Positions 2,292 to 63,427 are shown, counted from the whole stretch's first letter. The stretch: 63,427 nt of DNA, filler included, from Candidatus Hydrogenedentota bacterium (GCA_040752395.1; 16 parts of 16 records of this genome joined end to end with filler, not necessarily neighbours in it); one strand, 5' to 3'. Program-made: numbers and translations. Notes: generated by a model not told the origin, from the letters alone.

Positions 2292-2519
2292 AGATGATAT
2301 GAAAAGAGTCGTGAGTCGCAAGTCGTGAGTCAAAACAGGACTCGAGACTCAAGACTCAAGACTCAAGACTTTTCAGCAGGCTTTTGGCTTTTGGCTCCAC
2401 CCGGCTGTAGTCCGTAGCCTGTAGCCTGTACCCCGTCCTGATACCTCTCACTTCTTCCGTTATCTTGCTTCTTGCTTCTATTTGATATTATTAGAGTTAC
2501 AACGTTTTTCAGAGGAGGA
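2292..2519 (+). repeat. Composite modular element upstream of efp
   Basis: GAGTC hairpin, GGCT hairpin, TTGCTTC arm, terminus 2487-2517. Confidence 0.9.
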
Positions 2520-2536
2520 ATGAAACCAGGGTTATT

Positions 2537-3106
2537 ATGAAACTTGTTAGTGAACTTAAGTTGAACCAGATGGTTCTAATTGATGGTAAATTATTTAAAG
2601 CTATCGAGACAATACGACACGGTGGTTATGGAAAAGTAGGAGGTTTTATAACTCTTAAATTACGTGACATTTTAACAGGCTCTGAATCTGAACGTAAATT
2701 TAATTTTGATGATAAGATTGAAGACGCACCTCTTTCCAGAAGAAATATGGAGTTCTTATATAAAGAAGCAGATGACTATATATTTATGGATTCTGAAACT
2801 TTTGAACAAGTATCGATTGATAAGATAATATTGGGAAATGCAGCTTTATTTTTAATAGAAAATCATACTTATCAGATTGAATTATATAAAGAAAAACCTG
2901 TAGGTGTAGTCTTACATGACTCAATTACCTTAAAAATACTTGAAACAGCTCCCCCTACAAGGGGTGCAAGTGATTCTGTCTGGAAAGAGGCTAAACTTGA
3001 GAATGGACTTGATATTCTCGTGCCTTTATTTATAGCTCCTGGTGATTCAGTAAGGGTTGACACTAAAACAGGTAAATATATCTCACGGAGTGAAAAAAGT
3101 CATTAA
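2537..3106 (+). CDS. efp: Elongation factor P family protein with atypical loop
   Basis: FLYKE..YIFMDSETFEQ and KEAKLENG..VPLFI..GD.VRVDT.TG.Y motifs; 189 aa. Confidence 0.85.
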   Translation: MKLVSELKLNQMVLIDGKLFKAIETIRHGGYGKVGGFITLKLRDILTGSESERKFNFDDKIEDAPLSRRNMEFLYKEADDYIFMDSETFEQVSIDKIILGNAALFLIENHTYQIELYKEKPVGVVLHDSITLKILETAPPTRGASDSVWKEAKLENGLDILVPLFIAPGDSVRVDTKTGKYISRSEKSH

Positions 3107-3182
3107 CCACTTTGAAAAAAGTTGGAAATAAGAAGTAAGAAGTGAGAAGTATCAGGAAATACAAGATAGAGAGGTTTAAGTT

Positions 3183-4115
3183 ATGAAAATCAGAACTGTT
3201 TTCGGGATATTATTATCCCTCGCGCTACTATTTATAATATTTATTCAGCTTCTCGTAATACTTGGTATTTTTATAAGTAGACAGGATAGAGGTGTGCCTT
3301 TTATAACTTCTGTTGGTGTGATAGAGATTACGGGAACCATAATGTCATCTGACCAAACTTTAGGTCATCTTAAAAAGGCTGAAGAGAATAATTTTATTAA
3401 AGGGGTTATTTTAAAGATTAATTCGCGTGGTGGAGCTATCGGACCCTGTCAGGAGATATACGATAAACTAATTAATTATAAAAAGCCGGTTGTTATATAT
3501 ATTCAGGGATTAGGTGCAAGTGGGGGATACTATATAGCTTCATCCTGTGAAAACATAGTTGCGGAACGCGGTGCTATAACTGGCTCTATCGGTGTTTTGT
3601 TCCACTCGCTTTATTTTGAAGAAACAATGAAAAAGCTTGGCATCGGCGAAACCGTTGTTAAAAGTGGAAAGTTTAAAGATGCAGGCAGTATAACAAGACA
3701 TCTGACTGAAGAAGAATATAAATATTTTCAAGGCGTAATTGATGAATTATATCTACAGTTTGTTAAGGACATAGCGTTTGGTAGAAAACAAAGGTGGCTT
3801 AAGCTATATCCTGAATTAAAAGATTTAAAGGATGAAGAATATATTAATAGATTCAGAAAGATTTTCAAAGACGAGATCGATGGCAGGGTTTTTACAGGTG
3901 GAGAAGCATTTAATAAAGGGTTTATAGACAAGCTCGGCACATTTGATACTGCTATTGATTTAATGAAAGATATCCTTGATATAAAAGAAGACCCCAATTT
4001 AATATTTTATCGAAATTATGACCATGATAAATTCAAGTTTTTCGGTTTATCTTTATTTAATAATAAAATAACAAATCCTCTGCCCCCGGGATTTTATTAT
4101 TTAATGAGGTGGTAA
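3183..4115 (+). CDS. sppA: Signal peptide peptidase SppA (S49, 36K type)
   Basis: N-terminal TM, INSRGG, GASGGYY, TGSIGV, SGKFKD. Confidence 0.9.
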   Translation: MKIRTVFGILLSLALLFIIFIQLLVILGIFISRQDRGVPFITSVGVIEITGTIMSSDQTLGHLKKAEENNFIKGVILKINSRGGAIGPCQEIYDKLINYKKPVVIYIQGLGASGGYYIASSCENIVAERGAITGSIGVLFHSLYFEETMKKLGIGETVVKSGKFKDAGSITRHLTEEEYKYFQGVIDELYLQFVKDIAFGRKQRWLKLYPELKDLKDEEYINRFRKIFKDEIDGRVFTGGEAFNKGFIDKLGTFDTAIDLMKDILDIKEDPNLIFYRNYDHDKFKFFGLSLFNNKITNPLPPGFYYLMRW

Positions 4116-4120
4116 AATTT

Positions 4121-4456: not shown

Positions 4457-4556
4457 NNNNNNNNNNNNNNNNNNNNNNNNNNNNNNNNNNNNNNNNNNNN
4501 TTAATTAATTAANNNNNNNNNNNNNNNNNNNNNNNNNNNNNNNNNNNNNNNNNNNN

Positions 4557-4835
4557 AGAAGCAAGAAAACGTCTGAATCTCCTCTGAAAAACTTCGCAAC
4601 CCTAATAATTTGGGCTACAGGCTACGGACTACAGCCGGCTGGAGCCAAAAGCCCAGAGCCTGCTGAAAAGTCTTGAGTCCTGTTTTGACTCACGACTTGC
4701 GACTCACGACTCTTTTTATATCATCTTTAGTTTTTCATCCTTTGTGTAGAACGCAATAACCCAATAACCCAAGAACCCAATAGTGTAGAGCGCAAACCGC
4801 GCTCATGACAACTCCTATGAACACAGATGTTCATG
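4557..4835 (-). repeat. Composite modular element
   Basis: GTAG-REP, 9-mer array, GAGTC and GGCT hairpins, variant terminus 4579-4609. Confidence 0.9.
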
Positions 4836-4856
4836 TTAGTTTCTTAATTATTTTTA

Positions 4857-5461: not shown

Positions 5462-6562
5462 TCAAGTTTCAAAAAGCTTTTTTAGCGGATTAAATTTTAG
5501 ATTCTTAAGCGGCAGATAAACTATTTTATTACCGATCAGGCTAGAATAATAACAGGCAAATATTAATTCTAATGCTTTTGTTGCATCGTATCCTGTAGAT
5601 ATAACCTTTCCCTTATTCTCAATAGCATTTATAATCTCAAGTACCTGTTTTACATCGGTATTCTCATAATGCAATGGTTCAATAAATTTATCCTGCAGAA
5701 CTAAATCCCTGAACCCTTCATACATTCTCGAGGTATCTGATTTATAATATCTATAAATACCGTTGCCTATATGTATTCTTCCATCTTGACCTAAGATATC
5801 CACTTCAAAATGAAAATAATTTCTTACACCCCCATTCTCCATAAACCCTTTAATCCCGTTCTCAAACTCAAAATAACAAACAGCTCTGTCTTCTATTTGT
5901 ATATCATCTTTTTCTCTTGATATAAAAGCCTGAATCCATTTAAACTCTCCGAAAAAATATCTTAATATATCGAACATATGTGTTCCATCATGCATTAGCG
6001 GTCCACCGCCAGCTATCTCGAGTTTTGAATGCCAGCCTGGTTTAGGTCTACCAGTAAGCATCCAAGCCGCAACAGTTCTTACCTCGCCTATACCCCCATC
6101 TTCAATAAACTTCTTTACCCCCTGATAATAGCCATCATATCTTCTATGATGATTTACAGCCAAAATCACTTTATTCTTTTCACATTCTTTAATCATTTCC
6201 CTTGCATCAGAGAGATTTGTTGCGATCGGTTTTTCGCAGAGTATGGCTTTTAGCCCTTTTTTACTCGCCTTTATTGTCATTTCTTTATGTAAATGGGTCC
6301 ATGTGCAGATACTTACTATATCAAGTTCTTCTTTGTCTAATAATTCTCTATAATCCTCATATAAATGTTCTTTTGATACTCCAAAGGTATATCCAAATTC
6401 ATTCAGTCTTTCTCTATTTATATCACAGCCAGTTACAATCTCACATTGACCACTCTTTACATAAGCGCCGGCATGGGTGCATGGATGTTGTCTTAGTCTA
6501 TCTTTTTCAAGTAACGATGCAACCCTACCACAGCCTATAATACCAACCCGATACTTTTGCAT
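5462..6562 (-). CDS. Gfo/Idh/MocA family oxidoreductase
   Basis: GIIGCG, CEKP, GGGPLMHDGTH. Confidence 0.9.
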   Translation of the reverse strand: MQKYRVGIIGCGRVASLLEKDRLRQHPCTHAGAYVKSGQCEIVTGCDINRERLNEFGYTFGVSKEHLYEDYRELLDKEELDIVSICTWTHLHKEMTIKASKKGLKAILCEKPIATNLSDAREMIKECEKNKVILAVNHHRRYDGYYQGVKKFIEDGGIGEVRTVAAWMLTGRPKPGWHSKLEIAGGGPLMHDGTHMFDILRYFFGEFKWIQAFISREKDDIQIEDRAVCYFEFENGIKGFMENGGVRNYFHFEVDILGQDGRIHIGNGIYRYYKSDTSRMYEGFRDLVLQDKFIEPLHYENTDVKQVLEIINAIENKGKVISTGYDATKALELIFACYYSSLIGNKIVYLPLKNLKFNPLKKLFET

Positions 6563-6566: not shown

Positions 6567-6708
6567 CTCCTCTGAAAAACGCTGTAACTATAATAATATC
6601 AAGTAGAAGCAAGAGGCAAGAAGCAAGAAGCAAGATAAACAAACATCTGGTTTTTCATACGTTGTGTAGAGCGCAAAAACCCAAAAACGCAATAACCCAA
6701 TAACCCAA
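6567..6708 (-). repeat. Composite modular element upstream of Gfo/Idh gene
   Basis: 9-mer array, REP half, (GCAAGAA)n, terminus GAGGAG 4 nt before ATG. Confidence 0.9.
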
Positions 6709-6808
6709 NNNNNNNNNNNNNNNNNNNNNNNNNNNNNNNNNNNNNNNNNNNNTTAATTAATTAANNNNNNNNNNNNNNNNNNNNNNNNNNNNNNNNNNNN
6801 NNNNNNNN

Positions 6809-7744: not shown

Positions 7745-8838
<1,094 letters not shown>

Positions 8839-10205: not shown

Positions 10206-10370
10206 AGAGTCAAAGAGTCGCGAGTCGTGAGTCAAAACAGGACTCGAGACTCAAGACTTTTCAGCAGGCTTTTGGCTTTTGGCCCCAGCCGGCTGTAGTC
10301 CGTAGCCTGTCCTGATACTTCTCACTTCTTACTTCGTGAAATTATTAAAGTTACAGTATTTTTCGAAGGT
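10206..10370 (+). repeat. Composite modular element between radical SAM and E1-alpha genes
   Basis: GAGTC and GGCT hairpins, variant terminus ending CGAAGGT before ATG. Confidence 0.9.
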
Positions 10371-10373
10371 GAT

Positions 10374-11054
10374 ATGCGAGAACTCGAACTGCAATTGTAT
10401 AAAACAATGTGTAAAATACGATTCTTTGAAGAAAAAATCTGTAGCGTATATTCAAAACAGGATATGAGAACACCTGTACATCTATGCATCGGTCAGGAAG
10501 CCATAGCATCCGGGGTCTGTGCTAATCTAAGAGATGATGATATATTATTCAGCACACATAGAGGCCACGGTCATTATATTGCTAAAGGAGGTGATTTATT
10601 AAAACTTGTACTTGAGCTTTATGGCAAGAAAGCGGGTTGCAGTGGTGGTCGTGGTGGGTCTATGCATCTCTGCGATCCGCAAAAAGGTATGCCTGGTTTC
10701 AGTGCCATTGTATCTGGTGTTGTCCCTGTAGCAGTTGGCTATGCATTCGCTATAAAATATAAGAATGAGAAAAGAATCAGCTGTGTATTTTTCGGTGACG
10801 GCGCTGTTGATGAAGGAACTCTTTATGAAAGTTTTAATCTCGCAGCTTTAAAAAGATTGCCAGTCCTTTTTATCTGCGAAAATAATTTCTATGCCACCTC
10901 TTCTCACATTAGAAATAGATACGCTGTTTTTAATCTGCCAGATAAAGCAAAAAGTTTCGGGGTGCCAGGTTACAGAAAAGATGGTAACGATGTCTTAGAA
11001 ATTTATAATTTAAGCAGGGATTTAATTGGGAAGATACGTAATACACTCAATTAA
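10374..11054 (+). pseudogene. TPP-dependent dehydrogenase E1 alpha subunit, C-terminally truncated
   Basis: HLCIGQEA, GRGGSMH, FFGDGA..ENN; stops before the expected TYR..H..D region. Confidence 0.65.
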
Positions 11055-12409: not shown

Positions 12410-12626
12410 CTGATACTTCTTACTTCTTACTTTTTTCGAAGGAGTCAACATGAGCGCGGGTTGCGCTCTACACAATATATGAAAAACTAAAGATGATATG
12501 AAAAGAGTCGTGAGTCGTGAGTCAAAACAGGACTCGAGACTCAAGACTTTTCATAGGGGGCTCCAGCCGGCTGTAGTCCGTAGCCTGTACCCCGAATTAT
12601 TAGAGTTACAGCGTTTTTCAGAGGAG
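12410..12626 (+). repeat. Composite modular element between truB and ribF
   Basis: REP, hub, GAGTC and GGCT hairpins, terminus 12596-12626. Confidence 0.92.
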
Positions 12627-12631: not shown

Positions 12632-13250
12632 TTGAATATATATTTTGATTTTACCAACCTGAATATAAAATCAGTATTTGTTGGAGTTGGTATATTCGAC
12701 GGCGTGCACCGGGGTCATCAGGAGATAATAAAAATATTAAAAGAAAACGCTAAAAAATATAATAGCGAGACCTGTGTTCTTACATTCTACCCCCATCCCG
12801 TAGAAATACTCGCAAATAAAGAATTTGAATATTTACAGACTCTTGATGAAAGACTCGAAACGTTGAAAGAAGCCGGTATTAAGCATACTATCTGTGTTTT
12901 ATTTGATGAACATTTTGCAAAACTAAATCCTGATGATTTCTTTAATAATTATATCTTTAAACATCTTAAACCCAATGGTATGGTAGTAGGAGAAAATTTC
13001 AGATTTGGTAAAGATAGAAAAGGTGATACTCCTTTACTTGAAAATTTATGTAAACAGCATAAAATTAAATTTTGTGTTGTTGATTCAATTAAATATAATA
13101 ATGAAATTATCTCTTCGACCAATATAAGAGAAAAACTTAAAAACAGTGATTTTAAGTCAGCTTATTCAATGCTTGGCAGAAGATTTTACTGGATAGGTGT
13201 GGTTACAAAAGGTAAAGGGCTTGGTCGCAAAATAGGGTTCCCTACAATTA
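12632..13250 (+). CDS. ribF: Bifunctional riboflavin kinase/FAD synthetase, 3'-partial
   Basis: GIFDGVHRGH, TFYPHP, FRFG, ISST.IR, GRKIGFPT. Confidence 0.95.
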
Positions 13251-14631: not shown

Positions 14632-14974
14632 ATAACGAAAGAAGCAAGAAGCAAGATAACGGAAAAGAAAGATAACGAAAGAGGCACAGAGGCACAAAGT
14701 ATGAAAAAGATAGGAGTTAGGAGTTCGTAATAATAGATACGAGCTCCGAACTCCGAACTTTTTCAGAGGAGTCGTCATGAGCGCGGGTTGCGCTCTACAC
14801 AAGGTATGAAAAACTAAAGATGATATGTTGGCTTCAGGCTACGGGCTTTTGTCTCCAGCCGGCTGTAGTCCGTAGCCTGTGGCCTGTAGCCTGTCCTGAT
14901 ACCTCTCACTTCTTCCGTTATCTTGCTTCTTGCTTCTACTTGATATCATTAGAGTTACAATGTTTTTAGAGGAG
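14632..14974 (+). repeat. Composite modular element, most complete copy
   Basis: GCAAGAA arm, GGCACA, GGAGTT hairpin, REP, hub, GGCT hairpin, TTCTTGC arm, terminus. Confidence 0.92.
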
Positions 14975-14984: not shown

Positions 14985-15191
14985 ATGCTTTTGAGATTTG
15001 AAAAACTTGGTTATATAACCTACGTTAATACTGATAACATGACAAAAGCAACTTTTACAAAAAGAGATATTACTTTTACCTTTGTCGACGGCACTCAGAA
15101 AGAGTTCATTATAAAAGAGGATATATCAGAGGAACAAGTAAAAGCATTGCTTGAACAACTCGATTCAGTTATTCCACGAAAACAAGGCTGA
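14985..15191 (+). CDS. Small hypothetical protein
   Basis: 68 aa, GAGGAG SD from the element terminus. Confidence 0.65.
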   Translation: MLLRFEKLGYITYVNTDNMTKATFTKRDITFTFVDGTQKEFIIKEDISEEQVKALLEQLDSVIPRKQG

Positions 15192-20882: not shown

Positions 20883-21090
20883 CCTCCTCTGAAAAACGCT
20901 GTAACTCTAATAATTCGGGGTACAGGCTACAGGCTACGGACTACAGCCGGCTGGAGCCAAAAGCCAAAAGCCTGCTGAAAAGTCTTGAGTCTCGAGTCCT
21001 GTTTTGACTCACGACTTGCAACTTGTGACTCTTTTCATATCATCTTTAGTTTTTCATCCTTACCCCTATCTTTTTCATACTTTGTAGAAC
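20883..21090 (-). repeat. Composite modular element between glnB and dapB
   Basis: Three ATGAAAA hubs, GAGTC and GGCT hairpins, terminus GAGGAGG 4 nt before ATG. Confidence 0.92.
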
Positions 21091-21091
21091 G

Positions 21092-21436
<345 letters not shown>

Positions 21437-21600
21437 TTACAATATTACAAATTTATTAAATTTGCTCAAGATATTTTTACGTGTATACCTTGCTTGCATC
21501 TATTCTATCACGGATAAAGTGGGACTGTCCCGTCAAACCTTCTTTTTTCATCCGTAAATCACCCTCATCTCATTTTTTATAGTATCAATCAAATAGTGCA

Positions 21601-21725
21601 TTGTGACATTAATTTCTGACCGTAGATTTTTTTATGTCATTCCCGCGAAAGCGGGAATCCATACGCTTTTACTGGATTTCACGGTCAAGCCGGGGAATGA
21701 CAATGTGCTGAAATTTATGTCACAA
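21601..21725. mobile_element. MITE-like element with internal REP-like palindrome
   Basis: 16-bp inverted repeats TTGTGACATTAATTTC / GAAATTTATGTCACAA (1 mismatch) around GTCATTCCCGCGAAAGCGGGAATCCA...GGAATGAC. Confidence 0.7.
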
Positions 21726-21941
21726 GCCAATAATAAGAATAATTTATTAAATTAAGTACAGAAATCTAATGGGCTGTAGAATCGTTTGGGGATAGTGAAA
21801 ACAAAATATCTGTGTGAAACCCTAGCAAGAACATTGGTTGTTAAATGATGAGCAAAATTGAGAGAGAGCAGAGAGATAATGTGCCGCGCTTTAATGTTTA
21901 TAAAAAAATATAATGAATAATTAGAAAATAAAATTTTGATA

Positions 21942-29828: not shown

Positions 29829-32186
29829 TCAATTTGTAGTTGCAGAACAAGTAGCTTGTGAGCTCTCATTAGGCTGATTTGTAGGTGGTGCGATATTATC
29901 ATCAAGCGCCGTTACAGCAAAATAATATGTCGTTTTCGCAGCAAGCCCTGTTACGGTATATGAACTTGAACTTGTCTGACCAAGAAACATCCATGGACCA
30001 CCAGTACCAGCAGATAAACTTCTGTAAACCTTATAACTCGAGGCTTCAGACGACGGGCTCCACGAGATGGTTACAGAGTTTGTTGTTGCATCTGATTGCT
30101 TTAATCCGCTTGGGGCAGACGGAGCAACCTGGTCCGAAGGAATATCAGAGGCTTCATTCGAATTTAATGACTCATTACCATTAAAGTCATAACTTCTTAG
30201 AATAAAATAGTATGGTGTCCCATTAATTAGATTCTTTATCTCATAAAGCGATTGGGTTGAAGAAAGATTTGCAATTAACGAATAAGGGCCACCAGAAGCC
30301 ATACTCTGATACAACCTTAACCCCGCTATATCCTGATTTGTAGTATTGAATCTCCACGTGAGTGTGATTGTACCACCAACTTTAGCATCAACAGCTGAAA
30401 CATCAGACGGCGCATCAGGTGCAGTGTTAACAACAGTGAGCGTAGTTGCACTCGAAACACTCGAACTATTACCAACAGCATCTGTTAATGTTAGACTCGA
30501 GACAGAATATATACCACCTGGTAAATCAGTCGGGATTGATAAAATTCCAGTATAACTGTTAACACCAGCTAAACTAAGCGTTGCTTGTAAAGTTCTACCT
30601 GTTGGACCTGTAAGCGCTATCTCCGTAGAATTTATTAAACCCGAAGCATCAGAAGCAACCACTGTTACAGTAACAGCAGAAACCTCGCCAACAGTAACTG
30701 ATGAAGGCGAAAAAGTTATAGATTGTAATGTTGGTCCGTCATTATCTACTGCACCACTTGGTGTCCTTACCTCCCGAGTTATATTACCTGCCCCATCTTT
30801 TGCCTCAAATGTAACATCACCACTTGTAGCCCAGTCAATCGTTGAACTGAACGAACCATTTGCATTAACCTCAAGCGGATAACCATTCGCAGTTACTATC
30901 GCACCTGCCTCCACAATACCTGATACTAATATCTTACCTGTAGCATTATCTACAAGGATCTGGGATATGGTAAGAGTTGGAGCTATAGAATCAAGTTCAA
31001 CCTGTATAGTCTTCTCTGAAATATTACCTGCTTTATCTGTAACAATAATCTGGATATTATTCATCCCTTCAACTAAAGAATGCTGATGATTAACAACGCC
31101 TGATGCGGTCTGTAATGATAAATCACCTATCTTTACAATAGAATTAGCCTCTGTATTCAGGGAGAGACTCAAAATAGACTGGTTTGTTATTGAAGGTATA
31201 ATGCTTATAATTTGAATATCAGGTTTAATTGTGTCTATTACAACTGGTATTTCTTGAGATTGAGTCTTATCTTCATTTGTAATGATAATCTTATTATCAC
31301 CTTCAGCAAGAGTTACAATTTCAGAGTATGACCCATCAGCGCCGCAGATTATAGAAATGTCGTTTATTATTATCTTTTGATTTGCTCCATAGATACCAGC
31401 AACTTTTACCTGGCTCGTAGCAAATATCGTCCCGCTCGCAGGCTCGGAAACCATAATTACATAATTTTCCTGTATAGTTTCATCAGTAGGTGTTGTCTCG
31501 ACTTCCGGGGTAACAGCTGTACCTGTATCAGTCGGGATTTGTGCTTCTTCTTTTGCTTTTTCTTCCTCTCCAACATTAGCATCAGGGTCCTCTGCTTTTT
31601 CTGGTGGTGTAACATCGCCTGTTGGCATTGAGAGGGATTGCTGAAATTGACCTACATTCACTTCCTGATTACTGAACACATTTCTTAAATTCACCTGACC
31701 ATCACGAACATAAAGCATTGTTGTACCATCTTTTTCTATATTCATTGTAAAATCAGTGCCTCTTACACCTGCAACAGAAGTTGGTGTAGCCACCTCAAAC
31801 ATTGATCCCTCGGTTGGTAGTGGCTGTACCTTTGCCCTCACATTACCAATCCACATTTTTAATTGTTTCTGTCTGTCACCCCCTTTTGTGTCTTTTAATA
31901 TTTTTATATCCATCATCGAGTTCTCTCTAACAAAAACCTCAGACCCGTCAGCAAATTCTAATCTTAATTTTGAGGCAAATTTTGTTCTTACTTTATCGCC
32001 TTCTTGTAATTCAATCCCATTTGTTAAAGACTCCCATTTTTCACTATCTTTTACTTTGTAATCAGCATCACCAACTAAATCAGTTACTTTAGCAGTATAT
32101 TTTTCTGCATAAATCGTTATAGGGTATATCAGAAAAACCCCTAATATTAAAACCATCAAAACCTTAAAAAAATCTCTGTATCTCAT
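29829..32186 (-). CDS. Secreted FecR-domain protein with Ig-like and fibronectin type III domains
   Basis: Signal peptide, L.EGD.V.T, TPTSVAGVRGTDF, DT..P Ig repeats, two FN3; start moved to ATG 32186. Confidence 0.85.
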   Translation of the reverse strand: MRYRDFFKVLMVLILGVFLIYPITIYAEKYTAKVTDLVGDADYKVKDSEKWESLTNGIELQEGDKVRTKFASKLRLEFADGSEVFVRENSMMDIKILKDTKGGDRQKQLKMWIGNVRAKVQPLPTEGSMFEVATPTSVAGVRGTDFTMNIEKDGTTMLYVRDGQVNLRNVFSNQEVNVGQFQQSLSMPTGDVTPPEKAEDPDANVGEEEKAKEEAQIPTDTGTAVTPEVETTPTDETIQENYVIMVSEPASGTIFATSQVKVAGIYGANQKIIINDISIICGADGSYSEIVTLAEGDNKIIITNEDKTQSQEIPVVIDTIKPDIQIISIIPSITNQSILSLSLNTEANSIVKIGDLSLQTASGVVNHQHSLVEGMNNIQIIVTDKAGNISEKTIQVELDSIAPTLTISQILVDNATGKILVSGIVEAGAIVTANGYPLEVNANGSFSSTIDWATSGDVTFEAKDGAGNITREVRTPSGAVDNDGPTLQSITFSPSSVTVGEVSAVTVTVVASDASGLINSTEIALTGPTGRTLQATLSLAGVNSYTGILSIPTDLPGGIYSVSSLTLTDAVGNSSSVSSATTLTVVNTAPDAPSDVSAVDAKVGGTITLTWRFNTTNQDIAGLRLYQSMASGGPYSLIANLSSTQSLYEIKNLINGTPYYFILRSYDFNGNESLNSNEASDIPSDQVAPSAPSGLKQSDATTNSVTISWSPSSEASSYKVYRSLSAGTGGPWMFLGQTSSSSYTVTGLAAKTTYYFAVTALDDNIAPPTNQPNESSQATCSATTN

Positions 32187-32196
32187 CGAGTAGATA

Positions 32197-32430
32197 CCTC
32201 CTCTGAAAAACATTGTAACTCTAATGATATCAAGTAGAAGCAAGAAGCAAGAAAACGTCTGAATCTCCTCTGAAAAACTTCGCAACCCTAATAATTTGGG
32301 CTACAGGCTACGGACTACAGCCGGCTGGAGCCCGAAGCCCGGAGCCTGAAGCCAACATATCATCTTTAGTTTTTCATGCTTTGTGTAGAGCACAAAAACC
32401 CAAGAACCCAATAGTGTAGAGCGCAAACCG
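32197..32430 (-). repeat. Composite modular element with two termini
   Basis: Terminus 32197-32228 plus variant 32264-32294 identical to 4579-4609. Confidence 0.9.
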
Positions 32431-32530: not shown

Positions 32531-32710
32531 AGTCTTGAGTCTTGAGTCTCGAGTCCTGTTTTGACTCACGACTTGCGACTTGTGACTCACGACTCTTTTT
32601 ATATCATCTTTAGTTTTTCATACCTTGTGCCTCTGTGCCTCTGTGCCTCTTTCGTTATCTTTCTTTTCCGTTATCTTGCTTCTTGCTTCTTGCCTCTTGC
32701 TTCTAATATA
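32531..32710 (-). repeat. Composite modular element downstream of S8 protease
   Basis: Reverse complement of the GCAAGAA, GGCACA, hub and GAGTC modules. Confidence 0.9.
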
Positions 32711-34879: not shown

Positions 34880-35176
34880 GAAGGAGTACTCATGAGCGCG
34901 GTTTGCGCTCTACACTATTGGGTTCTTGGGTTATTGCGTTTTTGCGCTCTACACAAAGCATGAAAAACTAAAGATGATATGAAAAGAGTCGTGAGTCAAA
35001 ACAGGACTCGAGACTCAAGACTCAAGACTTTTCATAGGGAGCTCCAGCCGGCTGTAGTCCGTAGCCTCTAGCCTGTCCTGATACCTCTCACTTCTTCCGT
35101 TATCTTGCTTCTTGCCTCTTGCTTCTACTTGATATCATTTTGATATCATTAGAGTTACAAAATTTTTCAGAGGAGG
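34880..35176 (+). repeat. Composite modular element upstream of DUF4198 gene
   Basis: REP, 9-mers, hub, GAGTC, GGCT, TTCTTGC arm, terminus. Confidence 0.92.
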
Positions 35177-35184
35177 TAAAATCA

Positions 35185-36030
35185 ATGTGCAAAATTAAAA
35201 TTATAGGTGTAGCGTTGATTACTCTGATAATAATATCAGGGACGAGTAGTATGGTGTTACCACATTTTCAGTTGGTTTACACACCGGAATCAAATGTTGA
35301 GGGAACATCTGTTCCTTTCAAGCTAATATTCACACATCCGTTTGAAGCAGGGCATACTATGGATATAGGTAAAGACGAAGCTGGTAACATAAAAGGAATG
35401 AAAGAACTTTTCTTGATTCATAAAGGGGAAAGGACTGACCTGGTGGATAAACTGAAAGAGATTACATTTACCAGCCTTACTAATTCTGGTCGTGCCTATG
35501 ATCTTACACTTGATAACAAATGTGGTTACAAAGGTGGTGGAGATTTCGTTCTAATCGCTGTTCCTTATCCATATTACGAAGCCGCAGAAGATATCTACAT
35601 TCAGCAAGTCACAAAGGTAATGATTAACCGTAGTGGAATAGCTACTGATTGGAGTGAACGTTGTGCAGAAGGTTACCCGGAAATAATGCCATTAGTTATG
35701 CCTTATGATGTTTGGGTAGGTGGTATCTTCAGAGGAGTAGTCATTGATGGTAAAGGAAACCCTGTTGCGAATGCAGAGATAGAAGTCGAGTATATCAACT
35801 ACGAGATTGATATGAAGGCTAACAAGTTCACCGGTAAACCTAAAATATCTACAGAAGGTCATGGTACTGCTGTGATATTAGCTAATAAAGATGGCGAGTT
35901 TTCTTTTGTTCCAACAAAAGCAGGATACTGGGGATTTGCTGCTCTTGGTGCCGGTGGCAAAAAGGAATACGAGGGTAAAGAATTGTCAGAAGATGCGGTG
36001 CTCTGGATCGAAGCTGTGAAGACAGAATAA
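35185..36030 (+). CDS. DUF4198 periplasmic protein (Ni/Co uptake associated)
   Basis: Signal peptide then HFQ, FTHPFE, P.PYYE..ED.YI.Q, GYWGFAAL; start moved to ATG 35185. Confidence 0.8.
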   Translation: MCKIKIIGVALITLIIISGTSSMVLPHFQLVYTPESNVEGTSVPFKLIFTHPFEAGHTMDIGKDEAGNIKGMKELFLIHKGERTDLVDKLKEITFTSLTNSGRAYDLTLDNKCGYKGGGDFVLIAVPYPYYEAAEDIYIQQVTKVMINRSGIATDWSERCAEGYPEIMPLVMPYDVWVGGIFRGVVIDGKGNPVANAEIEVEYINYEIDMKANKFTGKPKISTEGHGTAVILANKDGEFSFVPTKAGYWGFAALGAGGKKEYEGKELSEDAVLWIEAVKTE

Positions 36031-38216: not shown

Positions 38217-38295
38217 GGGGGTGTAGCGAAGACTGGTTTATCGCGTCGGCCTGTCAAGCCGAAGATCGCGGGTTCAAGTCCCGTCACTCCCGCCA
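38217..38295 (+). tRNA. tRNA-Asp(GTC)
   Basis: Acceptor GGGGGTG/CACTCCC, anticodon arm TCGGC-CTGTCAA-GCCGA, GGTTCAAGTCC, encoded CCA; TTGACA upstream. Confidence 0.95.
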
Positions 38296-38384: not shown

Positions 38385-38544
38385 TTATCATAGGAGTTGT
38401 CATGAGCGCGGGTTGCGCTCTACACAACGTATGAAAAACTAAAGATGATATGTTGGCTTTGGGCTTTTGGCTCCAGCCGGCTGTAGTCCGTAGCCTGTAG
38501 CCTGTACCCCGAATTATTAGAGTTACAGCGTTTTTCAGAGGAGG
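38385..38544 (+). repeat. Composite modular element upstream of ATG 38549 (gene cut by linker)
   Basis: REP, hub, GGCT hairpin, terminus GAGGAGG-TTTT-ATG. Confidence 0.9.
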
Positions 38545-40259: not shown

Positions 40260-40280
40260 CCTCTCTCTTCTTAGTTATTA

Positions 40281-40511
40281 CTTTTTCATAGGAGTCGTCA
40301 TGAGCGCGGTTTGCGGTCTACACTATTGGGTTCTTGGGTTCTTGGGTTCTTGCGTTATTGGGTTATTGCGTTTTTGCGCTCTACACAATATATGAAAAAC
40401 TAAAGATGATATGTTGGCTTCAGGCTCCGGGCTTCGGGCTCCAGCCGGCTGTAGTCCGTAGGCCGTAGCCTGTACCCCGAATTATTAGAGTTACAGCGTT
40501 TTTCGAAGGAG
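40281..40511 (+). repeat. Composite modular element
   Basis: REP, long 9-mer array, hub, GGCT hairpin, terminus ending CGAAGGAG. Confidence 0.9.
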
Positions 40512-40872
40512 TCGTTAGATATTACTACTTTATGAATACGGCGAATCCCATAAGAAAGATAGCTGAAAGAACGCTTATATGTTTTATCANNNNNNNNNNN
40601 NNNNNNNNNNNNNNNNNNNNNNNNNNNNNNNNNTTAATTAATTAANNNNNNNNNNNNNNNNNNNNNNNNNNNNNNNNNNNNNNNNNNNNGCTTTTTTTGC
40701 TGTTATTTTTACCCCTACTTTATTTTAATATTTGATTAAATAACAGATAACATTCTTGATAATATTACAATTAACAAAAAAGATAGGTCAAAAAATGGTG
40801 ATTTTAGGGGTTAAAAATTTTGAACTTAGGCTAAAGTTGTCGGTTACAAACAAAATGAACTGCATAATATTC

Positions 40873-42765: not shown

Positions 42766-42943
42766 AGTGAAGACTCAAGACTTTTCAGCAGGCTTCGGGC
42801 TCCAGCGGACTGTAGTCCGTAGCCCGTAGCCTGAAGCCAACATATCATCCTTAGTTTTTCATACTTTGTGCCTTTGTGCCTCTGTGCCTCTTGTTTCTTG
42901 CTTCTACTTGATATCATTAGAGTTACAATGTTTTTCAGAGGGG
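42766..42943 (+). repeat. Composite modular element upstream of pilC with inverted internal modules
   Basis: GGCT hairpin followed by reverse-complement hub and TTTGTGCC modules, then terminus. Confidence 0.9.
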
Positions 42944-45424: not shown

Positions 45425-46381
45425 TTACAACTTGCGATTTGCGATCCGATGAATGTCGCTAAAATATTTACAGGTCTTTTCCAGACCCTCGTAGATGTCA
45501 GTTGCGGGAAAATAATTTAATATTTTTTTTGCTAACGTAATATCAGAAAGCGAATCTCTTACATCACCTGGTTTTTTTGGAAGATATTCAGGTTCTATTG
45601 AACTTTTAAGTATTTTTTTTATGATATTAACAAGTTCGTTTACACTTATCGCTTTCTCACATCCTATATTTATAATTTTGCCAGGTGCTGAAATGGCTGA
45701 CATTGCAAGTATATTAGCACTAACAACGTTCTCAACAAAAGTAAAATCTCTTGTCTGGCAACCGTCACCATAAACTGTTGGTTTTACATTATTTAAAACC
45801 ATATTTATAAACTTTGGTATTGCTGCTGCATACTGGCTCTCCGGGTTCTGTTTTGGTCCGAAGATGTTAAAATACCTTAAACACACTGTTTCTAATCCAT
45901 AGAGGTCATAAAATACTCTGCAATAATGTTCAGCAGTTAGTTTTGTTATAGCATAAGGCGATAACGGATTAGGTATCATATTTTCGCGTTTGGGTAACTC
46001 CTGGGTATCACCATAGATAGAAGAAGACGACGCGAATATAAATCTTCTTACCTTTGCCTCGCGAGCAGCAATTAAAAGTTTGAGGGTACCATCTATATTA
46101 GCTTTATTGGTTGTTATGGGATCTTCAACGGAGCGCGGGACAGATGGTATCGCTGCCTGATGGAAAACAGTATCTACTCCTTTTATGATTTCAAATATTT
46201 TATCATCATTAATATCGCATTCATAGAATTTGATTTCAGTCATTACATTTTTAAGATTTTCTATTCTACCTGTTGATAAATTGTCGCAAACAATAGTTTC
46301 ATATTTATCATTAACCAGTTTTTCAACGAGGTTGGAGCCGATAAAGCCAGCGCCACCTGTTACCATTACTTTTTTAGACAT
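45425..46381 (-). CDS. NAD-dependent nucleotide-sugar epimerase/dehydratase
   Basis: TGGAGFIGS, SVPRS, SPYAITK, RYFNIFGP; start moved to ATG 46381. Confidence 0.92.
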   Translation of the reverse strand: MSKKVMVTGGAGFIGSNLVEKLVNDKYETIVCDNLSTGRIENLKNVMTEIKFYECDINDDKIFEIIKGVDTVFHQAAIPSVPRSVEDPITTNKANIDGTLKLLIAAREAKVRRFIFASSSSIYGDTQELPKRENMIPNPLSPYAITKLTAEHYCRVFYDLYGLETVCLRYFNIFGPKQNPESQYAAAIPKFINMVLNNVKPTVYGDGCQTRDFTFVENVVSANILAMSAISAPGKIINIGCEKAISVNELVNIIKKILKSSIEPEYLPKKPGDVRDSLSDITLAKKILNYFPATDIYEGLEKTCKYFSDIHRIANRKL

Positions 46382-46388
46382 AGTTGAT

Positions 46389-46490
46389 CCTCCTCTGAAA
46401 AACGCTGTAACTCTAATAATTCGGGCCACGGGCTACGGACTACAGCCGGCTGGAGCAAAAAGCCAAAAGCCAAAAGCCTGCTGAAAAGTC
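46389..46490 (-). repeat. Composite modular element upstream of epimerase
   Basis: GGCT hairpin and terminus. Confidence 0.9.
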
Positions 46491-46590
46491 NNNNNNNNNN
46501 NNNNNNNNNNNNNNNNNNNNNNNNNNNNNNNNNNTTAATTAATTAANNNNNNNNNNNNNNNNNNNNNNNNNNNNNNNNNNNNNNNNNNNN

Positions 46591-50172: not shown

Positions 50173-50520
50173 TTACTTAAAAGATTTTATGGCTTTATCT
50201 ATATTATCGAATAAAGAAAAAACTTTAGAAGCACCCATTATATCAAAAATATTTTTTATCTTCTCATTTAAATTAACAAGTTTTATATCACCGCCACCAG
50301 CTCTAACCCTCCGCAATCTGCCAATAATAACCCCAAGCGCAGTAGAATTTATCTGCGTAACATCGTTCAAATCAAGTATCAGTCTAAAATCACCTTTATC
50401 AACAAGCTCGGTTATAGTATCTTTCAATTTACTAACAACAAAAGCATCTATCCCGCCTATTAATTTAATTATAACACAATTGTTAAGAGTTTTTTCTGTT
50501 TTTATAATGAGATCGCTCAT
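50173..50520 (-). CDS. STAS-domain anti-sigma factor antagonist
   Basis: G.ID, LDL..V..INSTALG. Confidence 0.88.
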   Translation of the reverse strand: MSDLIIKTEKTLNNCVIIKLIGGIDAFVVSKLKDTITELVDKGDFRLILDLNDVTQINSTALGVIIGRLRRVRAGGGDIKLVNLNEKIKNIFDIMGASKVFSLFDNIDKAIKSFK

Positions 50521-50543: not shown

Positions 50544-50745
50544 CCCCCCCTGAAAAACATTCTAACTCTAATAATTGGGGCTACAGGCTGCGGACTACAG
50601 CCGGCTGGAGCCTGAAGCCAACGTCCTTTAAAAAATTCAGAATGTGGAATGCTGAAATCTGTGGTCATCAGCCAGAATTTAGAACGCAATAACCCAAGAA
50701 CCCAATAGTGTAGAGCGCAAACTGCGCTCATGACTACTCCTGTCT
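50544..50745 (-). repeat. Composite modular element between two STAS genes
   Basis: REP, 9-mers, GGCT half hairpin, terminus. Confidence 0.88.
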
Positions 50746-55346: not shown

Positions 55347-55390
55347 AAAACTCACCTTCTTCTTGCTTCTTTCGTTATCTTGCTTCTATA

Positions 55391-55807: not shown

Positions 55808-57467
55808 TAAGTATCTCCTGAAGATAGGTATCCCATCTCTCAGCCTCAATAATATATGAATTTACAACCTCTTTATCTACATTTACTCCTTTTTCGATTT
55901 TAGATTTTAACTCAAAAAGTTTATCCTGTATAGAGAATGAAAGAAAATCAATTATATCGTTCTGTTTTTGGGCGGCAATAAAATCAATCTTGGCAAGTTC
56001 TTTCCATTCGATTAATTTTTTATATAATTTTATAACATAGTCCCGCGTATCAATTCTCCTTTTTACCTCCTCGTATTTCACAATTTCTATATCTTTTACT
56101 TTTGAGAGCAGATTTTGTGCTTGTTCTAAACCCATTTTTTCTGGTTTCTCAAGGATACCATCTGACAGGTCTATAACCCTTGTATCTTTATCAGTGTTTT
56201 CTATTTCATAATCAAGATAATTTTTATAGTTCAAAAGATTACTCATAGTATAAAATTCTCTATTTTTATAATTATAGGTAATAAGGTTTTCTAAAAAATT
56301 TATTTTTATCTGTGAAGAAAACCTGTTAATCTCAGAAAAGCTCCTGGTCTCATAAGCTGTTCCTTTTGCATACCATTTATATGGGTCAAAACTATAATCC
56401 TGACCCAGGAGAAAAACATTTTTAGATTTGATTCTTTTTGCAAAATCATAAGCAGAAATACTTATACTTCCACCACTTTTTAACGTTTCATCCTCTAATG
56501 CCTCTGTTATATTAAAGAACGGGTGCGGATACCAGAAAAAGAAAATCCTGTTCCACTTTAATTTCAATACATCAGTATATACACAGGGTGCTACGATTAT
56601 ATCACACTTGAGCTCATAGCCTTTAAAATGTTCTTTAGTTAAATTCTGTGCATCACCGGAAAAAACAAAATCAGGTATTATACCTGAACTGCATAATACT
56701 GGCAACGACGTATCTATCGCTAATAAAAGAAACTTATTTCGGTTTGTTTTTAAAAAGTTTATACCTTTCTCAAGCGAAGGCCCCGCACCTGTTATAATTG
56801 TATTATACCTGTGTTTTGCTAAATTATTAATAAGTTCGTTTAATGAATATACGTTTTTTGAGATAACCATATTCATAATAATTTGTTCAGACCAGATTCT
56901 GCCAAACTGTAAAATAGTCTCAATATTTTTACTCCTGAAAGAGATAACATCTTTAATGTTTTTTAACACATACTGATAATATTCCGGGTTTAACTCAATC
57001 AGTGGCTCTGAATAAATTATACCAGGCCTGTCACCAACACTTATATAATCACCGATTGTATCTAATAATAAACTCTTCTCTATGCCTAAAATTATTGTTA
57101 ATCTTTGTTTTTTAAACTGCGTAAAATCCCAGTTACTAAATACAACACCAAATAACTCATAATCACTCTCGATAATAATAACTTCTTTTATCGCCAACAA
57201 TTTGATTATAAGATACGGATTCCCTATGGATAAAACAAAAACTTTATCTATGGTTTTATCTTTTGATAGATTATTTGAGATTATGCGCTCGGCTTCTTTA
57301 TCAGGGTTATATCTACTCATTAAATATCTTTTATTAAATAGTATAACCTTGTTACCATTTTTCTCTGATATCTGATATTTATCTGATACTTTAATATGAT
57401 GAAGTTTAATGGCCGTTCTAATTCTTTCTTTAAAATGTTCCAGATTTCGTTTATAAGTCTCGCTCAT
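55800..57467 (-). CDS. MAF_flag10/DUF115 motility-associated factor glycosyltransferase-like protein
   Basis: SRYNP.KEA, GAGPSL, G..PDF, GGS..., LLGQD.SF. Confidence 0.8.
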   Translation of the reverse strand: MSETYKRNLEHFKERIRTAIKLHHIKVSDKYQISEKNGNKVILFNKRYLMSRYNPDKEAERIISNNLSKDKTIDKVFVLSIGNPYLIIKLLAIKEVIIIESDYELFGVVFSNWDFTQFKKQRLTIILGIEKSLLLDTIGDYISVGDRPGIIYSEPLIELNPEYYQYVLKNIKDVISFRSKNIETILQFGRIWSEQIIMNMVISKNVYSLNELINNLAKHRYNTIITGAGPSLEKGINFLKTNRNKFLLLAIDTSLPVLCSSGIIPDFVFSGDAQNLTKEHFKGYELKCDIIVAPCVYTDVLKLKWNRIFFFWYPHPFFNITEALEDETLKSGGSISISAYDFAKRIKSKNVFLLGQDYSFDPYKWYAKGTAYETRSFSEINRFSSQIKINFLENLITYNYKNREFYTMSNLLNYKNYLDYEIENTDKDTRVIDLSDGILEKPEKMGLEQAQNLLSKVKDIEIVKYEEVKRRIDTRDYVIKLYKKLIEWKELAKIDFIAAQKQNDIIDFLSFSIQDKLFELKSKIEKGVNVDKEVVNSYIIEAERWDTYLQEILNV

Positions 57468-57471: not shown

Positions 57472-57550
57472 CTCCTCTGAAAAACGTTGTAACTCTAATA
57501 ATTCGGGGTACAGGCTACGGACTACGGACTACAGCCGGCCGTAGCCTGAA
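57472..57550 (-). repeat. Minimal composite element overlapping the 3' end of the upstream gene
   Basis: GGCT hairpin and terminus GAGGAG 4 nt before ATG. Confidence 0.9.
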
Positions 57551-58151
57551 ACCCACATACCATCTTTTGTAATCTTTTATAATCAATTTCAGTATCAAAA
57601 TCAAGTAATATAAAATTGTCATTGACTTCTAATTCAATTATCTTTTTTTTTAACATACTGAACATCACTCGTAACCCTTTATTTTTAAAATCATCGGTGT
57701 GGATAATATCTTCTAAATATTTTTGCGGTATAAGAATAGGATGTCCTTTTCTACCTTGATATACAGGTACAATTATTTTATCTTTTAGCGAGTGTTCTTT
57801 TAGACTTTTAATTGTTTCGGTTTTAACTAAAGGTACATCAACCGGATGAATAAATATTCTATCAATACCCGTCTCCTTTATGAGATTGAACCCGGTTTCT
57901 ATACTTGAATGCATCCCCCTTTGTGGATTTTTATTTATTACAAATTTATATCTCTTTCTTTTTATATAATTAATAACTCTCTTATCATCCCTTATAACAA
58001 TTACGGTATCTATTCCAAGACTTTTATAAGTTTCATCAACTTTATCAACAAATTTCTGATTCTTATTTAAGGTGAGGATCGGTTTTGGAAACCCGTTCAT
58101 TCGTGAAGAGAAACCAGCTGCAAGTATTATCGCTATCTCATTTATTGGCAT
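57522..58151 (-). CDS. MobA/MocA-like NTP transferase
   Basis: ILAAGFSSRM..PK, GM.SS, PVDVP, G.KGHP, DFDT..DY. Confidence 0.88.
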   Translation of the reverse strand: MPINEIAIILAAGFSSRMNGFPKPILTLNKNQKFVDKVDETYKSLGIDTVIVIRDDKRVINYIKRKRYKFVINKNPQRGMHSSIETGFNLIKETGIDRIFIHPVDVPLVKTETIKSLKEHSLKDKIIVPVYQGRKGHPILIPQKYLEDIIHTDDFKNKGLRVMFSMLKKKIIELEVNDNFILLDFDTEIDYKRLQKMVCGFQATAGCSP

Positions 58152-62066: not shown

Positions 62067-62320
62067 GGTCTATAAATCCATAATTTTTTTTATATTTAAT
62101 TCAATAATCCTGTTTAAGTCAAGCTTTAATTTAACAGGTTTCTGAAAAACCTTATTTTTTTAAAACAGGTCTTTTGACCTTCACTACATTATATTGAAAT
62201 TACGAAAAATAAAAAATGTAGTAAGCATCTTTAGATGCGTCTTTAAGAAAAGGTGTTTATATGAGCATAAATTTAATTGATTTGATCATAAGTCAAAATT
62301 CCCTCTAATCATAATTTCGC

Positions 62321-63313
62321 CTAACCTTGTCTTAAATAAGCAGCTGCTTCCTCAGGTGGTGTGGGATTAATAAAAAAACCAGTGCCAAGTTCAAAGCCTG
62401 CTTCAATAGTAAGTTTGGGTATTATCTCAAAATGAAAATGATATGATTCAGAAAACTGGGTGCGCAAAGGTGAGGTGTGCAAAACAAGATTATAAGGCGA
62501 GTTTTCAAGAACTCTATAAATTCTTGCAAGGGTTTCTCTCAAAACCTCAGCTAATCCGCTTATCTCTTTTTTACCTATTATATCAAATGAATGAAAATGC
62601 TTTCTTGGTAGCACCCAGCTTTCAAATGGAAATCTTGAGGCAAACGGACAAAAAGATACTGCTTCCTCATTCATAGCAATTATTCTTTTAACGCCCCTTT
62701 CTTCCTCATCAATCATATCACAATAAACACATCTCTCTTTATAATCATAATGATATTTTGCTCCATATATCTCTTCTTTTATACGTTTCGGGATAACAGG
62801 TGTCCCTATAAGTTGAGAATGTGAATGTTCAAGTAAACCGCCAGCTGCTCTACCGTGATTTTTAAAAATCTGAACATATTTTAATCTTTCATCTTTGCTT
62901 AAAGCCCTCAATCTATTATGAAAAGCCCATAAAACTTCTTCTATTGATTGGGAGTTCATAAGAGAGAGTATCTGATTGTGGTCAGATGTTTCTACAATAA
63001 TCTCATGACACCCAAACCCGGCTATCTTATCATACATCCCCTCGCCCTTTCGTATAGCATCAATATCAGTCAGTAAAATAGGAAATTTATTCGGTACAAC
63101 TCTAACCCACCAGCCTGGCTCATTTGGTTTGGTACCTGGCTTACGAAAACCAAGTACCTCAGGAGGCGTATTCACTTCATTCCCCTCGCACAATGGACAG
63201 AAACCTCCTTTTCTTGTTTTATCTTCGCTACCGAAGTCAGATGGTCGTTTGCCACGTTCAGTGGCTATAATAACCCATCTGCTTGTAACAGGGTCTTTTC
63301 TCCATTCAGGCAT
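62321..63313 (-). CDS. galT: Galactose-1-phosphate uridylyltransferase
   Basis: RKDP...WVI.A.ER..RP, CPLC.GNE, EHSHSQ; start moved to ATG 63313. Confidence 0.92.
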   Translation of the reverse strand: MPEWRKDPVTSRWVIIATERGKRPSDFGSEDKTRKGGFCPLCEGNEVNTPPEVLGFRKPGTKPNEPGWWVRVVPNKFPILLTDIDAIRKGEGMYDKIAGFGCHEIIVETSDHNQILSLMNSQSIEEVLWAFHNRLRALSKDERLKYVQIFKNHGRAAGGLLEHSHSQLIGTPVIPKRIKEEIYGAKYHYDYKERCVYCDMIDEEERGVKRIIAMNEEAVSFCPFASRFPFESWVLPRKHFHSFDIIGKKEISGLAEVLRETLARIYRVLENSPYNLVLHTSPLRTQFSESYHFHFEIIPKLTIEAGFELGTGFFINPTPPEEAAAYLRQG

Positions 63314-63321
63314 AGTTACAT

Positions 63322-63427
63322 CTCCTCTGGAAAACGCTGTAACTCTAATAATATCAAGTAGAAGCAAGAAGCAAGATAAACAAACATCTGGTTTTTCATC
63401 CTTTGTGTAGAGCGCAAAAACGCAATA
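63322..63427 (-). repeat. Composite modular element upstream of galT
   Basis: Near identical to 6567-6680. Confidence 0.9.

Follow-up and report, generated by a model that had tools for sequence, protein, structure and literature searches.

The window examined here, 63,427 nt from Candidatus Hydrogenedentota bacterium (GCA_040752395.1), raises a simple question: why does one 31-nt motif ending in GAGGAG stand, time after time and in the same orientation, close ahead of start codons in genes unrelated to one another? The window is the whole stretch of DNA that was analysed, and consists of 16 draft contigs of a metagenome-type assembly, from a fragmentary metagenome-assembled genome (MAG), joined end to end. 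We call the motif, which closes with AGAGGAG, M7. M7 is the shared 3′-terminal block of polar, modular (mosaic) intergenic arrays of approximately 85–350 nt and, as far as sequence can tell, the repeat most likely supplies the Shine–Dalgarno (SD) sequence of the unrelated genes downstream. To the account as a whole, a family of polar mosaic arrays that spreads with M7 as its SD-bearing 3′ block, we give a probability of roughly 0.6.

Conservation of the motif and its 3′ boundary

All 18 positions listed for the motif in the initial annotation carry it, 17 as full copies and one, at base 1, as a partial copy. Allowing up to three mismatches, the full 31-mer has 10 matches in the window, against none in 100 shuffles, and the 22-nt core has 12. 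A 27-mer with up to seven edits has 18 matches, 17 of which are the full copies; the eighteenth (40271–40294) is an array head and not M7. The full copies end at 2517, 10371, 12626, 14974, 35175, 38543, 40511 and 42943 on the plus strand, and at 4579, 6567, 20884, 32198, 32265, 46390, 50545, 57472 and 63322 on the minus strand. Truncated at the window start, the partial copy, recognized by repeat-family alignment on the minus strand (1..55), comprises the neighbouring block M5 and the initial 11 nt of M7.

These 17 copies were aligned with one from another assembly (contig L002), giving 18 in total. In this alignment, the motif positions are 80–100% conserved, except three at the RCG site, and GAGGAG is conserved as strongly as the remainder of M7. 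At the first base past GAGGAG, conservation falls to 30–60%. The spacer and the start codon belong to each gene, not to the repeat.

M7 never stands alone: M5 or a second block, M6b, is always attached, M5 preceding it in 10 of the 18 copies and M6b in seven. Since the sequence subtypes of M7 track the neighbouring block, M5–M7 and M6b–M7 were copied as units. The initial annotation had described M7 as the 31-bp terminus of one element. It does form the conserved outer end of a dispersed repeat, but it is shared by two array types, ending in M5–M7 and M6b–M7, respectively.

This dependence on the neighbour also bears on a different explanation, in which M7 is the binding site of a single trans-acting post-transcriptional regulator that covers the SD, the genes forming a translational regulon. 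Identical 31-mers do overlap the SD of many genes, and ribosomal protein S1 or a CsrA-like protein could bind to the U-rich tract just 5′ of the SD. A similar proposal was made for TAACTGA heptamers near start codons in Beggiatoaceae, in the parts of MacGregor (2015; PMC4679880) drawn on here. However, near-identity over 31 nt goes far beyond what a binding site needs, and a motif that is never found alone, with subtypes that follow the neighbouring block, is a copied repeat rather than a convergently kept operator. The gene set is, moreover, functionally incoherent by Pfam, as the initial annotation had said in arguing against a regulon site. We consider such a regulator quite unlikely. A transcription-factor regulon site is ruled out: 31 nt are near-identical, they are always joined to M5 or M6b, and the genes are unrelated.

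Position of M7 relative to start codons

Fifteen copies are sense-oriented and lie 2–24 nt before a start codon, the spacer being the distance between GAGGAG and the start codon that comes first in the downstream frame. The spacer is 4–10 nt in 10 of them and 2–11 nt in 12, in agreement with the earlier claim of 15 sense copies within about 25 nt of a start.

Consensus copies, located by motif search and with the downstream gene recognized through Pfam, stand 5 nt before the TTG of ribF at 12632 (12596..12626, plus strand; M5 type), 5 nt before the ATG of dapB at 20878 (20884..20914, minus) and 8 nt before the ATG of an epimerase gene at 46381 (46390..46420, minus). Copies of the M6b type, found in the same way, precede a Gfo/Idh gene (6567..6597, minus; 4 nt before its ATG at 6562), a FecR-fn3 gene (32198..32228, minus; 11 nt before its ATG at 32186) and, with alignment as an additional source, efp (2487..2517, plus; 19 nt before its ATG at 2537). 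Motif search and Pfam also place M7 before genes for a DUF4198 protein (35145..35175, plus; 9 nt before the ATG at 35185), an MptE-like/MAF protein (57472..57502, minus; 4 nt before the ATG at 57467) and galT (63322..63352, minus; 8 nt before the ATG at 63313), as well as, with altered 3′ ends, before pilC/T2SSF (42913..42943, plus; ending GAGGGG, 7 nt before the ATG at 42951) and E1_dh, or E1-alpha (10341..10371, plus; diverged, ending GAAGGTG, 2 nt before the ATG at 10374). A diverged copy ending GGGGGG (50545..50575, minus) lies 24 nt before the ATG of a STAS gene at 50520, with AGGA in the spacer.

The other start-facing copies lead into short or truncated frames. An M7 with a 1-nt deletion (14945..14974, plus) is followed after 10 nt by the ATG of a 68-codon open reading frame (ORF; 14985–15191), which is unverified. 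A consensus copy (38513..38543, plus) lies 5 nt before an ATG at 38549, whose ORF is cut after eight codons by the contig end at 38573, and a copy ending GAAGGAG (40481..40511, plus) 20 nt before an ATG at 40532, whose ORF is cut after 19 codons by the contig end at 40589. Two full copies face no start directly. A variant at 32265..32295 (minus) has M6b and then the 32198 copy behind it, with no gene directly after it. In the case of another variant, of the GTTGCGAAG form (4579..4609, minus; motif search), the contig ends 22 nt away and does not include the downstream gene; that this copy seems to face the 3′ end of a plus-strand gene is an artefact of concatenation. Once the linkers between contigs are accounted for, no copy faces a gene 3′ end, as had been stated before.

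Pfam supports 12 of the 15 downstream genes, and their start codons are true because the domain matches begin at profile positions 1–7. If copies fell at random among the 12,842 non-coding bases, on either strand, given a hand-curated gene list, a single site would have a probability of 0.036 of falling in such a start-facing position. The arrangement of 15 of 16 testable copies then has P = 4e-21, and that of 12 of 13, counting verified genes only, P = 7e-17.

The arrays also mislead start-codon calling. Four longest-ORF calls (29829–32285, 35119–36030, 45425–46429 and 62321–63367) begin with TTG or GTG inside an array, and such array-internal starts would mis-annotate the N-termini of FecR, DUF4198, epimerase and galT by 16–33 codons.

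Shine–Dalgarno role and expression signals

In the window, genes without M7 have varied SDs (AAGGGG, GAGAGG, AAGGAG, AGGTG, AAGGA), whereas M7 genes share CAGAGGAG. Because the SDs of the former vary and conservation ends right after GAGGAG, this uniform SD belongs to the repeat and not to each gene. From this geometry, we strongly infer that M7, which occupies the SD position, would act as the SD of the unrelated genes that follow it. Arrays ending in an SD could then occupy operon junctions and still leave the downstream gene coupled to translation. The initial annotation had proposed that the element targets SD sequences or brings its own, and can thereby spread inside operons. This holds in so far as GAGGAG is at SD distance, the uniform SD goes with the repeat and arrays are found in co-directional runs (truB–ribF); the spreading itself we retain as a probable step only.

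A broader role would be that of an expression cassette resembling the Neisseria REP2 repeat, in which the array, or its M6b–M7 or M5–M7 end, has a promoter as well as a ribosome-binding site (RBS) and starts a new transcript. There is a precedent, as Neisseria REP2 and the Borrelia IR repeats hold a promoter, an RBS and an ATG directly upstream of ORFs, according to the sections of PMC3184786 drawn on here. The downstream genes are unrelated and some come after a tRNA or a non-operon neighbour, and at the Gfo/Idh copy a 9/12 sigma-70-like match (TTGCCT-18-TATTAT) extends across M6b–M7. On the other hand, consensus scans detected no sigma-70-like promoter recurring in sense orientation in any block, a weak test as the consensus may not fit this lineage, and the M5 and M6b contexts of M7 have no −35-like element in common. 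Promoter-like sites numbered 59, versus 56.6 expected from shuffles, in one region and 91 versus 66.4 (s.d. 8.0) in the other; none of those listed falls in an M7 copy, and a promoter within M7 is not supported by these scans. A promoter cassette is thus an unlikely explanation.

Architecture of the arrays

The block order of the arrays is fixed, their orientation is always that of the downstream gene, and all blocks but M7 are optional. The head, M1, comprises AGGAG, 5 nt, ATGAGCGCGG and a small GAGCGC/GCGCTC hairpin; an example is 40283..40323 (plus), with TTTTTCATAGGAG, 5 nt and ATGAGCGCGG followed by the hairpin. M2 is made of 8-nt repeats of the TATTGGGT type, and M3 is an AT-rich block, ATGAAAAACTAAAGATGATATG, with stops in all three frames. 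The next blocks are M4, (GAGTCGT)n AAAACAG (GACTCAA)n; M5, (GGCTTTT)n GGCTCCAGCCGGCTGTAGTCC (GTAGCCT)n; and M6, TCCTGATACCTCTCACTTCTTCCGTTATC (TTGCTTC)n TACTTGAT. Most of the blocks M1–M6 are hairpins whose arms have a period of 7 or 8 nt; M4 and M5 are predicted to fold as imperfect hairpins, with arms made of tandem 7-nt repeats and 4-bp helices recurring at 7-nt intervals.

The shortest array, approximately 85 nt upstream of the MptE-like gene, is reduced to M5 and M7, and the fullest, with M1–M7 (34885–35175, approx. 290 nt), precedes the DUF4198 gene. Arrays begin near the stop codon of the upstream gene and occupy the whole gap up to the downstream RBS; the gap between the P-II gene and dapB, for instance, is wholly filled by the array at 20884–21091, inside a 16,964-nt contig. 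Two M7 tails are found in series at FecR (32265, then M6b, then 32198). Other tails occur too: the array of asd ends in CTTTCAAAGGGGG, 12 nt before the ATG, and is without M7. In the window, the arrays match no Rfam 15 family at gathering score, the sole matches being two tRNAs. One of the neighbours of the arrays is a tRNA-Asp (GTC) gene at 38217–38295 (plus), after which an array head follows at approximately 100 nt. Arrays are thus not confined to gaps between protein genes.

M1 heads lie at 12450, 14777, 34892, 38402, 40300 and 44389 on the plus strand and at 4806 and 50731 on the minus strand. In seven of these eight heads, AGGAG stands 5 nt before the M1 ATG; M1 arrays are thus flanked by AGGAG on both sides. 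The ATG opens a short ORF (MSA[VG]CALH...) of 10–31 codons, or 67 where M3 is missing, which ends in M3 in seven of eight cases. By eye, only three of the six readable octamer tracts keep the frame of this ORF, roughly as many as chance would give. Since the frame is not kept across the 8-nt tract, the ORF is unlikely to encode a conserved peptide.

A perfect 25-nt inverted repeat, AGAAGCAAGAAGCAAGATAACGGAA and its complement (14640–14664 and 14913–14937, 248 nt apart), bounds a 298-nt unit (14640..14937, plus), with M7 just outside the right arm. The left-arm type of this repeat is also seen solo, after gene stops (32650–32710) and before a gene start (55347–55390). The solo and paired arms suggest a layer similar to miniature inverted-repeat transposable elements (MITEs), nested in the mosaic.

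Elsewhere in the window, a restriction–modification pair on the minus strand (436–2015) consists of an N6_N4 DNA methylase gene (436–1359) and a Bpu10I-like endonuclease gene (1356–2015) with overlapping ends, and an array comes after the stop of the methylase gene. An unrelated GC-rich inverted repeat, GTCATTCCC...GGGAATGAC, is found at approximately 21630–21700 (minus), in the otherwise repeat-free gap of 511 nt at 21431–21941.

Occurrence in other genomes and databases

Outside the window, only one match with the family was found among the matches listed: the first 138 nt of L002, a 2,198-nt contig of another MAG (G002), are M3–M5–M7 at 92% identity, and 9 nt separate this M7 from an ATG. 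G002 and the window organism have DapB at 49% and RibF at 36% identity. The contig may be mis-binned, and nothing is concluded from it on spread between lineages. The match to another contig, L001, in the scan of genome contigs was a chance match. The 41 genomes around G002 held no further M7 copy with up to two mismatches, metagenome contigs gave no match to the 27-mer or to the M5 core, viral contigs gave none, and plasmids and phages had no match to the full array. The short tail TTTTCANAGGAG was considered as a lineage-wide leader and rejected, being barely commoner in the 41 genomes than a reversed control; none of its 10 places, near contig ends or suspicious, resembles the arrays.

Two of the genomes around G002, both distant relatives, carry related structures. 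Long (AGTCAGG/AGTCGGG)n...(GACTCAA)n hairpin arrays of up to approximately 17 copies are found in G023 (L026, L031) and G020 (L027, L032, L034), so heptamer hairpin arrays are wider than the M7 family. In G020, three loci also show a short (GACTCAA)3 at the same place in apparently paralogous ORFs, as judged by eye. The dapB locus of G002 (L013 1400–1485) has 7-nt repeats of its own (ACGAACA type) and, 4 nt before the ATG, both GTTTCATGAGGAG and a GAGGAG of its own; GTTTCATGAGGAG resembles the M7 tail GTTTTTCAGAGGAG, in this single case. The nearest genomes, with DapB at 49–55% and RibF at 31–39% identity, are too distant for a comparison with empty sites. Likewise, no relative of the window DapB exceeds 55% identity in a protein search, the named matches, at approximately 53%, being Thermodesulfovibrio species. 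The literature searches returned no description of these arrays, nor of such repeats in Nitrospirota or Thermodesulfovibrio.

Composition of the window

The window has a G+C content of 35% (N excluded) and 31 runs of N, 30 of which form 15 pairs of 44 N; the other is a 10-N gap at 7790–7799. The 15 artificial linkers have the form N44-TTAATTAATTAA-N44 and lie at 2192–2291, 4457–4556, 6709–6808 and 12 further places up to 46491–46590. TTAATTAATTAA, which carries stops in all six frames, is present between both runs of every N pair displayed. Gene adjacency across the linkers is accordingly not real. The first seven pieces between linkers measure 2,191, 2,165, 2,152, 2,104, 2,082, 2,056 and 2,016 nt, and the rest 16,964, 2,001, 1,923, 1,919, 1,916, 1,874, 1,873, 1,854 and at least 16,837 nt; the small contigs thus stand in decreasing size order, broken by the two of approximately 17 kb. 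In a protein search, the sole contig bearing the window DapB is 16,964 nt long, which equals the spacing of two linkers.

Many contigs end inside repeats, with about one-third of contig ends within arrays by a count made by eye. The arrays break short-read assemblies, which accounts for the contig pattern of this MAG. Since the contigs of approximately 2 kb are those bounded by repeats, the repeat density of the window overstates the genome average.

Such a genome invites the objection that the pattern itself is an assembly artefact, a high-copy repeat having been misjoined to gene starts in a short-read assembly. The genome is fragmentary, with many contig ends in arrays, and the block composition of arrays may be partly chimeric. 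Yet M7 arrays are also internal to both long contigs (16,964 and 16,837 nt), the junctions between M7 and gene are all different and reach unique sequence within a few bases, and the same type of junction exists on L002, a contig of an independent MAG. An artefact is, in our judgement, very improbable.

Signs of insertion and weighing of the account

Of 30 loci in relatives, 19 have truB immediately ahead of ribF and on one strand with it, the gap being 1 nt in G002. In the window, these genes are 224 nt apart and the array at 12410–12626 lies between them. Further on, the last 11 codons (CGFQATAGCSP) and the stop of an NTP_transf_3 (MobA-like) gene are M5 sequence (57522–57556, minus), a C-terminus that would be expected if the array arrived later. 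Together with the serial tails at FecR and the 25-nt inverted pair, the split truB–ribF junction and the M5-encoded C-terminus look like insertion or rearrangement. The arrays would probably have spread through insertion or recombination, either at AGGAG sites that resemble an SD or next to them, a step for which support is weak, and slippage in the 7/8-nt tracts combined with recombination between blocks would then yield the array variants.

Several observations weigh against this account. No transposase or integrase was found among the 49 window ORFs scanned with Pfam, and no target duplication varies from copy to copy, AGGAG being identical at head and tail in seven of the eight M1 arrays. 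As to the SD role, verification is missing for three of the 15 downstream ORFs (Pfam gives no match to the one of 68 codons, and those at 38549 and 40532 hit contig ends). Three copies stand 19–24 nt from the start (efp 19, the ORF at 40532 20 and STAS 24), and the spacers of efp and STAS hold a weak SD of their own, so that M7 is maybe not the working SD there. Nor is the SD predicted to be accessible, the last 7 nt having a mean unpaired probability of 0.34 versus 0.42 for the upstream blocks, and the predicted folding of whole arrays does not surpass that of shuffles (z = −1.2 and −1.65). The ATG that follows M7 in L002 starts an ORF of 24 codons only, and the large gene behind has its own GGAGG. 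Finally, the scope is 63 kb of a fragmentary genome, enriched for repeat-bounded contigs.

Taken on their own terms, the weak SDs in the efp and STAS spacers fit an array inserted ahead of an RBS that was already there. An unstructured SD, kept so by M7, is unsupported by the unpaired probabilities and the folding z-scores.

The lack of a transposase and of variable target duplications, along with the fixed block order and polarity, would also suit old, vertically inherited structural spacers (e.g. for mRNA processing or stabilization) that were homogenized by gene conversion together with their SD. The related (GAGTCnn)n...(GACTCAA)n hairpin arrays of G020 and G023 point the same way. Such an origin nevertheless agrees poorly with the compact truB–ribF junction of relatives where the window has a 224-nt array, with an upstream gene whose C-terminus is encoded by M5, with the serial M7 tails and with a unit bounded by a perfect 25-nt inverted pair. 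We find it improbable, and continue with the spreading mosaic arrays.

As for the kind of mobile element involved, the arrays have no terminal inverted repeats: the M1 head and the M7 tail are not inverted copies, and the segment 34860–35190 has no inverted pair with a seed of 8. A classical MITE is ruled out by these missing repeats, the sole 25-nt inverted pair leaving M7 outside. The attC sites of integrons have core sites, R″ (RYYYAAC) and R′ (GTTRRRY), that bound an imperfect palindrome. An attC identity was rejected since GTTACAG/GTTGCGA in M7 do not fit GTTRRRY, array heads have no inverse core and the window holds no integrase. The array-flanked genes are housekeeping ones (efp, dapB, ribF, truB, galT), unlike genes of the cassette type.

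AGGAG on both flanks would fit an integration at the SD core, and equally well AGGAG as part of both ends. In the more specific version, a mobile element targets the SD core: it would integrate at AGGAG and regenerate an SD at its 3′ end, the M1 head keeping the original AGGAG, which then drives a decoy ORF, while M7 gives the gene a fresh SD and slippage-prone tracts tune expression. We hold this version to be rather unlikely. If true, such an element could colonize essential operons without polar effects.

Comparison with known repeats

There are precedents for repeats with an RBS ahead of unrelated genes, as the cited parts of Delihas (2011; PMC3184786) make clear for Neisseria REP2 and Borrelia IR. 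According to these, REP2 (CREN) and IR-A/IR-B are dispersed, without terminal inverted repeats, have internal stem-loops and lie directly upstream of ORFs, as single units of approximately 120–150 bp with promoter, RBS and ATG inside. The arrays resemble them, as far as that description goes, in standing directly upstream of unrelated ORFs, in sense orientation, with a putative RBS inside the repeat. They differ in that the ATG and the spacer (2–24 nt) are gene-specific and in being a mosaic of optional blocks with 7/8-nt arms, and the consensus scans, which may not fit this lineage, detected no promoter; the likeness is one of description, the host being unrelated.

The same source, citing Supply (1997), describes mycobacterial interspersed repetitive units (MIRUs) as lying in intergenic regions of polycistronic operons, containing ORFs and overlapping adjacent genes with their ends. 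In a similar way, arrays lie in operon junctions, one upstream gene ends in M5 and M1 opens an ORF. However, MIRUs are GC-rich, 40–100 bp long and often tandem, and an SD-bearing terminal block 4–11 nt before the start, as in the arrays, is not described for them in the parts of PMC3184786 used here. The short M1 ORFs are, in addition, not frame-conserved.

BIMEs of Escherichia coli and NIMEs of Neisseria combine palindromic units and linker motifs in varying numbers, in intergenic or intra-operon positions, and affect the transcripts of their neighbours. The arrays share with these, and with the BOX elements of pneumococcus, a mosaic build and an intergenic or intra-operon location. Most such elements lie 3′ of genes or show no orientation with respect to start codons, whereas the arrays are strictly polar and end in an SD. 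Tandem 7-nt repeats in intergenic DNA also occur as the STRR sequences of cyanobacteria. For BOX, transcription and the creation of ORFs are documented, and BOX-derived ORFs are without good SDs, in the sections of PMC3049150 consulted.

In the cited parts of PMC4679880, the TAACTGA heptamer repeats of Beggiatoaceae, cyanobacteria and Bacteroidetes lie mostly a few nucleotides upstream of the starts of functionally unrelated genes, and a role in translation is proposed for them; their SD character is slight, and in most cases they take the place of a recognizable SD. As there described, they have in common with the arrays tandem 7-nt repeats, unrelated genes and the vicinity of start codons. 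In contrast to them, the heptamers of the arrays form hairpin arms upstream, and the start-side block is a unique 31-mer with a canonical SD.

Significance

What is new here is an architecturally unusual family of dispersed intergenic repeats with translation signals, in an uncultivated, deep-branching host. If M7 is a working SD, a sizeable share of genes, among them efp, dapB, ribF and galT, would share a repeat-borne initiation leader. The arrays would then offer a clear natural case of a repeat that spreads via operon junctions without silencing genes, and would extend the notion of a portable expression signal, known from REP2 and the Borrelia IR, to a deep-branching lineage with a mosaic, heptamer-periodic architecture.

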